64,000 bases of DNA, taken from the sequence record MK234886; one strand, 5' to 3'. A program made the position numbers and the translations under genes. Below the pieces are notes generated by a model. It searched no databases, had not been told where the DNA came from, and was given only the letters and a program-made list of their open reading frames with translations. This DNA comes from Escherichia phage AnYang. Shown here one piece after another: positions 20,911 to 24,832 of the stretch (the first letter of the stretch is position 1; the number at the start of each line of letters is the position of its first letter).

Positions 20911-21002
20911 ACAAAAGTCCTTTGTTGTTTTATACTATTTGCCTTTCGGCCTTAACCGATAGCGATTACCAAAAGCTAAAGCTCTACGGTTAGTATTATT
21001 AT

Positions 21003-21281
21003 TTATAGCTTTTTAAGCTTACTACAATAAGAATAGAACACGTCGTTAAAATTATATTCAACCCAATTCCTCTGTATAGGCGAGGTAATAGAAAGCATAT
21101 AATGCGCTTTAATTAAATCCATCCCATTTTTATTAGGACACTCTTTATTATTAGCATTATACGTCGCTGCTACAACCTCTATCTCTCTTTTGTAAGCCAC
21201 ACCATCCATGATAGGCAAAAGAACAATATAAGAAATAGCCACAGCGAGCGCTAGAATTAAAATCTTTGAATTTAGGTCCAT
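21003..21281 (-). CDS. small membrane protein
   Basis: 92 aa, N-terminal TM helix. Confidence 0.5.
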   Translation of the reverse strand: MDLNSKILILALAVAISYIVLLPIMDGVAYKREIEVVAATYNANNKECPNKNGMDLIKAHYMLSITSPIQRNWVEYNFNDVFYSYCSKLKKL

Positions 21282-21288
21282 AGTACCC

Positions 21289-21861
21289 TCAACTCGTTAT
21301 TTCTATCCAGTGCTTCCTGCACAATGACACGTAAGAATCGTTGCCACCTATAGAAACTTGGGCTCCGTCCTTAATTGCGATACCATCTTGGATACGAGCC
21401 GTCATAGTAGCTTTACGGCCGCAATGGCACACACCTTTGTACTCAACGAGTTTATCTGCTGTAGCGAGTAATTCAGCAGAGCCAGGAAACAGTTTACCCT
21501 GAAAATCAGTTCTTAGTCCATAGCACATAACCGGAACATTATAATTGTCTACTATCTTTGCCAGTTGTTTTATCTGTACAGGTTCTAAGAACTGCGCTTC
21601 ATCCACAAACACACAGTGGATATCTTTTTGAGATTCAGCCCAACGATAGAACTCGTATAGGTCCATATCCGGAGTCACTGCATTAGCCTCTTGGCTAATC
21701 CCTATACGAGACGAAATGCTATGGCTTGATTCTCTATTGTCTATCGCAGGCTTTAAAAGAAGTACGCCCATACCACGTTCTTTGTAGTTATGAGCGGCTG
21801 TTAGCAATGAAGCGGTCTTCCCGGAATTCATTGCTGCGTAGTGAAAATAAAGTTGGGCCAT
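21289..21861 (-). CDS. tk: thymidine kinase
   Basis: 190 aa; P-loop MNSGKT, C-terminal Cys cluster typical of type II thymidine kinase. Confidence 0.9.
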   Translation of the reverse strand: MAQLYFHYAAMNSGKTASLLTAAHNYKERGMGVLLLKPAIDNRESSHSISSRIGISQEANAVTPDMDLYEFYRWAESQKDIHCVFVDEAQFLEPVQIKQLAKIVDNYNVPVMCYGLRTDFQGKLFPGSAELLATADKLVEYKGVCHCGRKATMTARIQDGIAIKDGAQVSIGGNDSYVSLCRKHWIEITS

Positions 21862-21870
21862 ATTACCTTC

Positions 21871-22062
21871 TTAAAGACTATTTACATAAGCTATTAATTC
21901 ATTTTCTTTCTCATCAAATCGATTGGCAAATTCTTCCTGATGTTCGGGAGATAGTGGGCCGTATTCATCATAAAAGGCGTTTGCTTCTGTATGCTCGTCC
22001 AAAAGCTCATGGATAAGCTCAAACAATTTATCTTTCTGTTCTTTACTCAGACTCATAACCAT
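21871..22062 (-). CDS. hypothetical protein
   Basis: ORF-track start is TTG; ATG with AAAGGTG SD chosen. Confidence 0.4.
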   Translation of the reverse strand: MVMSLSKEQKDKLFELIHELLDEHTEANAFYDEYGPLSPEHQEEFANRFDEKENELIAYVNSL

Positions 22063-22265
22063 TGCACCTTTAAGCAATATTCTTCTACATGCTGTTTACG
22101 TTTATTTTTATCTATAAAAGTATATTCAACGTATTCACCGATATACCATTTATCGGTGTTGTGTTGACTTTTTATAGGGCATTTAGTTACTCGGGTTTCG
22201 GTCCAGCGTCGAATAATTTCCGCTTTGTTTTTAGGGTCAAACGGATGCGGGTAATGGGCTTTCAT
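22053..22265 (-). CDS. hypothetical protein
   Basis: 70 aa ORF. Confidence 0.4.
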   Translation of the reverse strand: MKAHYPHPFDPKNKAEIIRRWTETRVTKCPIKSQHNTDKWYIGEYVEYTFIDKNKRKQHVEEYCLKVQWL

Positions 22266-22704
22266 AATCTACCACCACTAAATTAATATCAGGAGTAAAC
22301 AAATTAATCAATTGATAAACCTTGTCCCAATCACCACCAGCAATACCACAACCAATGCGAGGAATATAAATTCTTGGTTTAAACAAAAGACCTTTTGCGG
22401 TACGGTTTAATTCTATCATACAGTTTACTAAAGCACCGTAATCAAGATTAGGGCCTGGTTCGTATTGGGTGTATAAATTATAGCAAATTTGCCCATTATT
22501 ACCTGTGGCTTGAGTAAACGTGCCAAGTTTTTCCAAATGGCCTAAATAAGTGGTTTTATCGATAGCGAGAATAGGCGGATAAGCCTTAGCTAATTGCCCG
22601 GCTACACCTGAACCCATTGTGTGGAAACAGTTGCACCCGTGTGCAACATTATTACCTTGAAGAAACAGGGCGACAATATCGCCCTTAATATAATCAATAA
22701 TCAT
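22237..22704 (-). CDS. macro-domain-like protein (possible ADP-ribose binding or hydrolase)
   Basis: 155 aa; VAHGCNC...MGSGVAGQ and RIGCGIAGGDW resemble macro-domain glycine-rich loops. Confidence 0.5.
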   Translation of the reverse strand: MIIDYIKGDIVALFLQGNNVAHGCNCFHTMGSGVAGQLAKAYPPILAIDKTTYLGHLEKLGTFTQATGNNGQICYNLYTQYEPGPNLDYGALVNCMIELNRTAKGLLFKPRIYIPRIGCGIAGGDWDKVYQLINLFTPDINLVVVDYESPLPASV

Positions 22705-23057
22705 TTAGAGTTTAATCCTCGATTGTATGAATCAACGAGTCTGTCTACCATAGACGCGCACATTTCTTTGTACTTTTTATCAGATGGAACACATTCAGTA
22801 ACATTTAGACGTTGCTCGTACCTTTTAGAAAGAGTTTTCTCTTTCATTCTGCGATGCTCTACGTCGTTCTGTCCATCTTTAAAAGCCGCTGTGATTTTTG
22901 AACTGAATTCGATAACACATTCAGTATTACTTGGATGACAATAATCTTTTGCTGTGCGGGTAGCATACTCAACAATTGAATTATTGCTATCATCAACTTG
23001 TGACGCTAATACTCCCGGAGCGATCAACATAAGCGCTATAGTCATCTGCTTAATCAT
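22701..23057 (-). CDS. secreted/periplasmic protein
   Basis: 118 aa with N-terminal signal peptide. Confidence 0.5.
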   Translation of the reverse strand: MIKQMTIALMLIAPGVLASQVDDSNNSIVEYATRTAKDYCHPSNTECVIEFSSKITAAFKDGQNDVEHRRMKEKTLSKRYEQRLNVTECVPSDKKYKEMCASMVDRLVDSYNRGLNSK

Positions 23058-23597
23058 TTAATATACCGCCTCAAACATCTTTTTAGATTTTAGGTAATTG
23101 GCCTTTTCTAGAACTTCAGAAGCATACTTACTGCCTGCTTTGACGTTCCAGCCCGCATTATAAGAAGCAATCGCTTTTCTCAGGTCACCTTTGTGAACAT
23201 CAATCCAATAAGACAGCTCAATGTAGGCCCAAGAGGCACTGTTCTGTCGTTTTTGGACCATACGAATTATTTCTTTGTCAGACATCTTCCAACCTACCTG
23301 TTGAACACGACTTCTTAACGTAGGCAAGTAATTTTGGAACATGCCATAAGCATGGTGCTTATCTTTATTTAAACCCTGATTAATTCCGGCGGATGATTCC
23401 TGCCATAGTAATCCGGCCATGATATATCCTAATCCTTTTTGATTAGGGTTTTCTTTGAACTTTCCCGACTTTTGGTATTGTTCACCGAAAGCATACGCAT
23501 AATGTAAATTATCGAGTTGTTCATTACTGAAAGTAGGCTCTACGCTATGGGCAGACATACTAACTGTCAATAGTAAAGTGGCTAATACTTTTTTCAT
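23058..23597 (-). CDS. secreted lytic-transglycosylase-like protein
   Basis: 179 aa; signal peptide; LLWQESSAG...AYGMFQ resembles SLT catalytic motif. Confidence 0.55.
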   Translation of the reverse strand: MKKVLATLLLTVSMSAHSVEPTFSNEQLDNLHYAYAFGEQYQKSGKFKENPNQKGLGYIMAGLLWQESSAGINQGLNKDKHHAYGMFQNYLPTLRSRVQQVGWKMSDKEIIRMVQKRQNSASWAYIELSYWIDVHKGDLRKAIASYNAGWNVKAGSKYASEVLEKANYLKSKKMFEAVY

Positions 23598-23609
23598 GAG
23601 ACCTCATTA

Positions 23610-24068
23610 TTAAAGATAGATTACTTTAGTGCTTGTTTTACCTTCTAAACGTTTAGAGTTAACAAATGCCATACGGCATTTAAGGGAATATCCTTTATCA
23701 GGATGTTTACGGTCTACTGTCATACCTAGCCATAAGGTTTTATCGGTAATTTCGAGACGCAATGGACGATACACTTTACCAGGGACAATTTCGGATTCTA
23801 CATCAGGCAGAGGTTCCTGGATTAAGAATTCATGGATTTCTTTAACATGGTTATGGAGTTGCTTGAATAAAGCAAAAACGTATTTTTCGTCGATTTCACG
23901 TTGGATAGCACGGTCCAACAAATGATTAGAGTACTTAATAAAGAAGGCTGGGACTCCGCTCTTAACGGCGGCTTTTTTGATGGACGCATTCAGTTCGCGG
24001 AATTCGGTTTCGAACTGACGACGTAATTTGTTGCGGCGGATGAATACTTCTGAATTAATTTCTGACAT
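23610..24068 (-). CDS. regB: endoribonuclease RegB
   Basis: 152 aa; strong similarity to T4 RegB as recalled (EVFIRRNKLRR...HLLDRAIQREIDE). Confidence 0.9.
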   Translation of the reverse strand: MSEINSEVFIRRNKLRRQFETEFRELNASIKKAAVKSGVPAFFIKYSNHLLDRAIQREIDEKYVFALFKQLHNHVKEIHEFLIQEPLPDVESEIVPGKVYRPLRLEITDKTLWLGMTVDRKHPDKGYSLKCRMAFVNSKRLEGKTSTKVIYL

Positions 24069-24096
24069 TTTGTAATCTCCTGTAGTTGATAGGGTT

Positions 24097-24125
24097 ATAG
24101 TATCACGTCTACAGGAGATGTAAAC
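24097..24125 (-). promoter_or_regulatory. T4-type early promoter with CTCCTGTAG/CTACAGGAG inverted repeat
   Basis: GTTTAC -35, TACTAT -10; downstream arm holds the regB SD. Confidence 0.5.
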
Positions 24126-24129
24126 AGCT

Positions 24130-24339
24130 TTATTCTTGGAATGGGGTAAGTTTTCCAGCAGCAGAACAAATTTCTACCAATACAGGATAAAACTCTTTCA
24201 CCTGTTCAAGGCGTTGGGCTGCATACTGTACTTCACCTTCTTCGAGACAAGCCATTTGGTCGTCAAGCAAGTATTTGTGGTAGCCAGTACAGGCTTCACC
24301 GATGATACGCTGGAAATCTTGTAAACTTTCAATTTTCAT
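24130..24339 (-). CDS. hypothetical protein
   Basis: 69 aa ORF. Confidence 0.45.
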   Translation of the reverse strand: MKIESLQDFQRIIGEACTGYHKYLLDDQMACLEEGEVQYAAQRLEQVKEFYPVLVEICSAAGKLTPFQE

Positions 24340-24617
24340 CAGTATTTTTCCTCAGGTTGGAAAACGGAACGACACGCCCACATGCTTGCTTCTTTCAAGC
24401 GTTCGATTGCCGTACGAATCTGGGTGATGCGTTCATGAGCCTGGTCTAGTTCTTGTTCAGAAACCTCTTCGGTGTCTAAACCCATATAATGGTTGACATG
24501 CTCTTCTTCCAGAGCTTTAAACATTAACCCAAGACGAACTTCAGCATCTTTGATAGCGTTCACTTTACCGATTTTATCGTCGGTATGCGGCTTATAACCC
24601 TTAATATCTTCAATCAT
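24339..24617 (-). CDS. hypothetical protein (vs.4 position)
   Basis: 92 aa ORF downstream of regB in tiled operon. Confidence 0.5.
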   Translation of the reverse strand: MIEDIKGYKPHTDDKIGKVNAIKDAEVRLGLMFKALEEEHVNHYMGLDTEEVSEQELDQAHERITQIRTAIERLKEASMWACRSVFQPEEKY

Positions 24618-24832
24618 TTCACTTCCTCATCAGATGCAATATCGTATTCAACTAAATGAATCCCATCATATCCACCACGAACAGAGATATATGTGCTAGG
24701 ATAAACGGTTTCTTTACCATTCCATTGTCCGCTATCCCAGCATTCCAAAAAGCCTTGTTCGCCCTGTTCGTGGAACCAGTCAACAAACATCTTCAGAGCT
24801 TCATCAGAGCCTTCAATTGTCAATTTAGACAT
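24614..24832 (-). CDS. hypothetical protein
   Basis: 72 aa ORF. Confidence 0.45.
   Translation of the reverse strand: MSKLTIEGSDEALKMFVDWFHEQGEQGFLECWDSGQWNGKETVYPSTYISVRGGYDGIHLVEYDIASDEEVK

Follow-up and report, generated by a model that had tools for sequence, protein, structure and literature searches.

The tk.4 locus of phage AnYang

The DNA considered here, a single stretch of 64,000 nucleotides from Escherichia phage AnYang (sequence record MK234886; hereafter, the window), carries a minus-strand open reading frame of 155 codons that begins with ATG and is the ortholog of the phage T4 gene tk.4, or adfM. An initial annotation, drawn from the letters alone, had described a macro-domain-like protein of 155 residues at 22237..22704, situated between tk and regB. 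The ORF listing of the window contains exactly this frame, and the Pfam matches to thymidine kinase (TK) and RegB (REGB_T4) on either side bear out its placement between those two genes, an interval that it shares with tk.2, tk.3, vs, and vs.1. The principal features are as follows.

21289..21861: tk, thymidine kinase (Pfam TK, E 6.8e-57)
21871..22077, minus strand: tk.2 (Pfam DUF7438, E 6.9e-19)
22053..22265, minus strand: tk.3 (Pfam DUF7202, E 2.5e-37)
22237..22704, minus strand: tk.4 / adfM ortholog, encoding a 155-residue single-domain macrodomain protein (ORF listing)
22701..22704, minus strand: ATGA, in which the tk.4 start codon overlaps the stop codon of vs (ORF coordinates and sequence)
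22716..22720, minus strand: GAGGA, Shine-Dalgarno-like, 11 nt upstream of the tk.4 ATG (read from the sequence)
23610..24068, minus strand: regB (Pfam REGB_T4, E 4.8e-69)

In its annotation, phage IME08 (Straboviridae, Tevenvirinae, genus Dhakavirus) carries regB, vs.1, vs, tk.4, tk.3, tk.2, and tk, in this order and on one strand, and the T4 order matches that of IME08 with the addition of tk.1. Around tk.4, a stretch of 2.9 kb in the window matches Escherichia phage C6 at 98.7% identity and IME08 at 97.9%. The encoded protein shares 53% identity with T4 Tk.4 over 155 of 155 residues (E 5e-62) and, given this full-length identity together with the common gene order, the window ORF is the positional ortholog of T4 tk.4. 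Both proteins are 155 residues long, both genes lie between vs and tk.3, and the H-G-C-N-C, N-L-Y-T-Q, and G-x-G motifs are present in both. On the other hand, 47% of the residues differ, and the second glycine-rich loop reads GCGIAGGDW in the window as opposed to GAGIGKGNW in T4.

The ATGA overlap at its 5' end suggests, as read from the sequence, that translation of tk.4 is coupled to that of vs; at the opposite end, tk.3 starts inside the 3' end of tk.4, with an overlap of 29 nt. A scan of 21000..24800 returned eight promoter-like sites as against 11.2 expected in shuffled sequence, and four terminator-like sites as against 2.6 expected. Because such counts do not rise above those of shuffled sequence, neither a promoter nor a terminator can be assigned specifically to tk.4, which is probably transcribed within a long leftward transcription unit. 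A terminator-like hairpin with an 8-bp GC-rich stem, AGGGCGAT-ATT-GTCGCCCT, is found at 22667..22685 (minus strand), near the start of the tk.4 reading frame and inside its first 40 nt; it might influence translation initiation of tk.4, or might have arisen by chance. Two antisense ORFs overlie tk.4, at 22621..22938 and 22089..22286 (both plus strand). These were set aside in favor of the minus-strand frame, since it is the latter that is conserved at the protein level across thousands of phages, as judged by tblastn.

A widespread macrodomain family

Homologs of tk.4 are found by tblastn in 2732 of 50,697 phage records, with coverage of at least 80% in 2372 of the 2732, and these records span many host genera; homology on this scale argues that tk.4 is not a chance ORF. 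In the protein database, 358 homologs of its product are retrieved at E ≤ 0.001. Macrodomains are common among phages generally, being encoded by 41% of myoviruses (PMC9503650).

That the product is a macrodomain, as had been surmised from its glycine-rich segments, is supported by profile searches and by structure prediction. Pfam Macro (PF01661) matches it at 32.5 bits, above the gathering threshold of 22 (E 9.5e-8, model positions 2-117 of 118), and PHROG 335 matches at E 7e-67. A profile built from an alignment of 60 homologs (A1) detects solved macrodomain structures, namely BT1257 (4e-20), human TARG1 (6e-18), SCO6735 (1.6e-16), and yeast Poa1p (7.5e-15), as well as the DarG macrodomains of M. 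tuberculosis (7.7e-11) and T. aquaticus (2.3e-9). The AlphaFold2 model computed on the same alignment retains the mixed alpha/beta macro fold, with a pLDDT of 94.3 and a pTM of 0.89. The tk.4 product is a macrodomain of the ALC1/TARG1-like class. In many GenBank records the tk.4-type gene is already labeled either "macro domain protein" or "phosphatase," the second of which is probably misleading.

Some members of the family are longer. The homolog P0109, for example, has 247 residues, is 39% identical over 95% of the query, and gives Pfam matches to NUDIX (PF00293) and to PF22327, which suggests that a Tk.4-like macrodomain is here fused to a Nudix domain of the kind that degrades ADP-ribose. 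Several of the BFVD phage homologs likewise run to 238-260 residues, suggestive of extra domains.

Residues at the catalytic positions

Three segments of the protein bear upon how it might work.

22594..22647, minus strand: first glycine-rich loop, VAHGCNCFHTMGSGVAGQ, residues 20-37 (aligned to the TARG1, DarG, and BT1257 loops)
22465..22479, minus strand: NLYTQ, residues 76-80 (hmmsearch against TARG1 and BT1257; hhalign against Mtb DarG)
22327..22359, minus strand: second glycine-rich loop, RIGCGIAGGDW, residues 116-126 (alignments to homologs and structures)

The two glycine-rich loops are the very segments that had been singled out as resembling ADP-ribose-binding loops, and both stand in the translation as they had been quoted. 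The first holds H22, G23, N25, G31, and G33, with MGSGVA as residues 30-35, and of these H22, G23, N25, and G33 are invariant in alignment A1. N25 corresponds to Asn27 of SCO6735 and to the conserved Asn of DarG, and is an asparagine in all 119 of the listed homologs that lack a gap there. In the second loop, GCGIAGG (residues 118-124) aligns with the TARG1, DarG, and BT1257 loops; G118, G120, and W126 are invariant in A1, and G120 corresponds to Gly128 of SCO6735.

At the position of the catalytic lysine of DarG (K80) and TARG1 (K84), the phage protein has a glutamine, Q80, the equivalent of Gln85 of SCO6735. Three independent alignments concur on this placement, hmmsearch pairing Q80 with TARG1 Lys84 and both hhalign and MAFFT pairing it with DarG Lys80, and the residue is Gln in 120 of 120 non-gap homologs listed. 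The HMMER alignments show that BT1257 and SCO6735 also have Gln at this position; they were used for these two proteins since an eight-sequence MAFFT alignment misplaced their "NMIGQHG" strand. In the profile alignment, moreover, A122 occupies the position of the catalytic Asp125 of TARG1. Relative to human TARG1/OARD1 (PDB 4J5R/4J5S), then, the Lys84/Asp125 dyad is replaced by Gln80/Ala122, and a TARG1-like Lys/Asp mechanism was rejected on these grounds.

The closest parallels at these positions are cellular. SCO6735 (PDB 5E3B) and BT1257 (PDB 2FG1/2AFC) belong to a Gln-type, ALC1-like subclass that is ~25% identical to the phage protein and shares with it the glutamine at the Lys position and the equivalents of Asn27 and Gly128 (Q80, N25, and G120). 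These proteins differ from it, however, in the mobile loop, which in the SCO6735/BT1257 subclass is ~5-6 residues longer than in DarG or TARG1 and carries lysines; this loop defines the subclass, and the authors of the SCO6735 study link it to DNA activity (PMC9411070). The corresponding region of the tk.4 product, QYEPGPNLDY, is short, of TARG1-loop length, and has no basic residue; BT1257 shows a six-residue insertion relative to the Tk.4 profile.

Relation to DarG and to the PhiKZ macrodomain

A free-standing phage macrodomain might in principle be a DarG-derived "orphan antitoxin," and this candidate was rejected. In the DarG macrodomain of DarTG2 (PDB 5M3I, 5M31/5M3E) the catalytic Lys80 stands where the phage protein has Gln80. 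DarG has, in addition, a C-terminal DarT-binding domain that the single-domain phage protein lacks; against the PADLOC DarG model of 329 positions, it matches only positions 3-142. With this model the window protein scores 23.8 bits, T4 Tk.4 36, and BT1257 and SCO6735 32-35, as compared with 66.3 for human TARG1, 132.9 for PhiKZ gp104, and 264.4 for Mtb DarG. The NCBIfam equivalog antitoxin_DarG (NF048014) gives 20.2 bits for the window protein, far short of its cut-off of 250; the likeness to DarG stops at the level of the class. Neither the ORF list of the window nor the IME08 annotation places a darT beside tk.4, the neighbors being vs and tk.3. The window protein is not a DarG, and it is probably not a captured DarG antitoxin.

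A related case is that of PhiKZ gp104, likewise a free-standing phage macrodomain that counters DarTG2 and likewise called "AdfM" (Cell Rep 2026, PMC13309987). It is DarG-like and of a different lineage, keeps the catalytic lysine in a P-T-K motif, and enters the phage nucleus by import; it is ~20% identical to the window protein and ~18-20% to T4 Tk.4. This lysine-type AdfM removes DarT2-made ADP-ribose from DNA in vitro (PMC13309987). The name AdfM consequently covers two distinct macrodomain lineages, the Gln type of T4 and the Lys type of PhiKZ.

A likely anti-DarTG2 function

The most direct functional evidence comes from T4. When a T4 transposon library was screened on E. coli expressing DarTG2, tk.4 was the single significant hit, and a clean tk.4 knockout rendered T4 sensitive to DarTG2 (bioRxiv 10.1101/2025.11.20.689424, November 2025). 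These workers renamed the gene adfM, for "anti-DarT factor Macrodomain," and proposed from the genetics that T4 Tk.4 removes ADP-ribose from DNA (bioRxiv 10.1101/2025.11.20.689424). Within the Tk.4 type the anti-DarTG2 phenotype has been shown for T4, by genetic evidence in this single preprint, which in the literature searched is also the one paper found to link tk.4 with DarT; the CmdTAC paper (PMC11618068) and the AdfN/DarTG1 paper contain no mention of tk.4. The knockout phenotype agrees with the earlier suggestion that the window gene counters host ADP-ribosylating toxins or defense systems.

DarT2 ADP-ribosylates thymidine within the TNTC motifs of single-stranded DNA, a modification that a macrodomain can reverse (PMC13309987; PMC9411070). 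The Gln-type enzyme SCO6735 takes thymidine-linked ADP-ribose off DNA faster than does DarG or TARG1 and rescues DarT toxicity; its Q85A mutant is devoid of activity, N27S is nearly so, and G128E is reduced (PMC9411070). In the mechanism proposed by the authors of that study, the attacking water is held by the backbone, and the glutamine serves to position the distal ribose (PMC9411070). As the equivalents of all three residues (Q80, N25, and G120) are present in the phage protein, a lysine-independent mechanism resembling that of SCO6735 is favored. By analogy, then, we think it likely that the window gene encodes the Dhakavirus ortholog of AdfM, an anti-DarTG2 macrodomain that would hydrolyze thymidine-ADP-ribose on phage DNA in the lysine-independent manner of SCO6735. 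Upon triggering of the host DarTG2, DarT2 would ADP-ribosylate thymidines at TNTC sites in phage single-stranded DNA, and replication would be blocked. The two glycine-rich loops of the phage macrodomain would bind the ADP-ribose between them, with Gln80, itself held by Asn25, probably positioning both the distal ribose and a water molecule in the way suggested for SCO6735. Hydrolysis of the thymidine-ADP-ribose bond would then restore the base and release ADP-ribose. We infer for the window protein the activity and substrate proposed for T4 Tk.4 and the mechanism proposed for SCO6735. Counting against this reading are an identity to T4 Tk.4 of no more than 53%, the lack of the lysine essential in DarG and TARG1, the lack of the lysine-bearing mobile loop of SCO6735, and the weak match to the DarG model. 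With a PADLOC DarG score below the one for human TARG1, along with these other mismatches, the fold alone does not fix the substrate.

Could the enzyme instead serve the phage's own ADP-ribosylation? The initial annotation had raised regulation of phage ADP-ribosyltransferases (ARTs), and one can picture the protein reversing the marks placed by Alt, ModA, and ModB, either those on proteins of the host or the RNAylation due to ModB, so as to time or limit the modification program. T4-like phages do carry such transferases (PMC9503650), and the product is a bona fide macrodomain. Against this, the stretch of IME08 that matches the window has no annotated ART gene. Alt and Mod enzymes, moreover, modify arginine. 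The closest enzymes, for their part, have as reported substrates thymidine- and uracil-linked ADP-ribose and the ADP-ribose of PARP-automodified protein (PMC9411070; PMC13036486), and in the T4 screen tk.4 was conditionally important on the DarTG2 host only (bioRxiv 10.1101/2025.11.20.689424). The suggestion of self-regulation is thus unsupported, and we regard it as very improbable. The "phosphatase" label carried by some records would imply a Poa1p-like ADP-ribose-1''-phosphate phosphatase, or else an enzyme of O-acetyl-ADP-ribose, a signaling nucleotide, or another small ADP-ribose derivative. This label comes solely by way of homology to Poa1p, while the sole functional data for the ortholog point to DarTG2. 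Nor, to our knowledge, is an Appr-1''-p-producing tRNA-splicing pathway known in T4 infection, and a role of this kind seems to us quite unlikely.

A broader eraser, one that acts also on RNA (uracil-linked ADP-ribose) or on acidic protein residues and so counters several ART-based defenses or toxins beyond DarTG2, is compatible with the anti-DarTG2 explanation. SCO6735 and TARG1, the closest characterized enzymes to the tk.4 product, are active on DNA bearing thymidine-ADP-ribose, on RNA bearing uracil-ADP-ribose, and on PARP-modified protein (PMC9411070; PMC13036486), and the family is very widespread, with its 2732 phage records and many host genera. On the other hand, T-even phages are still sensitive to CmdTAC, an mRNA adenine ADP-ribosyltransferase system (PMC11618068), so that not every RNA ADP-ribosylation is erased; we hold so broad a range to be unlikely. 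Returning to the Gln-type, lysine-independent reading, one might extend it tentatively: the invariant Gln80 and Asn25 and the short acidic loop could mark the Tk.4-type AdfM as an independent phage branch among the TARG1/SCO6735-like macrodomains, one that does without the lysine. Its hydrolysis would be water-mediated and Gln-positioned, perhaps with several substrates (thymidine in DNA, uracil in RNA, acidic residues in protein), it would counter ART-based defenses broadly, and the two AdfM lineages would have been recruited convergently.

That T4 tk.4 encodes a macrodomain with an anti-DarTG2 role is already known, and the present analysis adds little to it; what is noteworthy is the glutamine at the lysine position and the short, non-basic loop of this T4-type family of 2732 phage records. 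Since AnYang carries tk.4/adfM, it is predicted to resist DarTG2-bearing E. coli, a prediction of use in host-range prediction and phage therapy.

Other genes of the interval

As for the neighbors, tk.2 and tk.3 fall in families of unknown function, and it is conceivable that they may be further accessory or anti-defense genes. At its N-terminus, MKKVLATLLLTVSMSAHS, the product of vs.1 (23058..23597, minus strand; 179 residues) resembles a signal peptide, and its match to the SLT lytic transglycosylase domain stays below threshold (15.9 bits, cut-off 21.3; E 0.0099). For regB, the IME08 RefSeq gene is 552 nt long and corresponds to 23610..24161, whereas the longest ORF in the window, 23610..24068, encodes 152 residues, of which residues 4-150 already span the Pfam REGB_T4 model in full. 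Either the start annotated in IME08 lies too far upstream, or the two phages differ in their upstream sequence.

The strand of tk.4 also carries, some 1.6 kb upstream of it, a 92-residue ORF at 24339..24617 (minus strand), vs.4 in IME08, which matches Pfam Acb2_Tad1_hairpin above its cut-off (E 6.4e-16). Its family is that of Acb2, a cyclic-nucleotide sponge directed against CBASS, and at least two likely counter-defense genes are thereby brought together within one short stretch.
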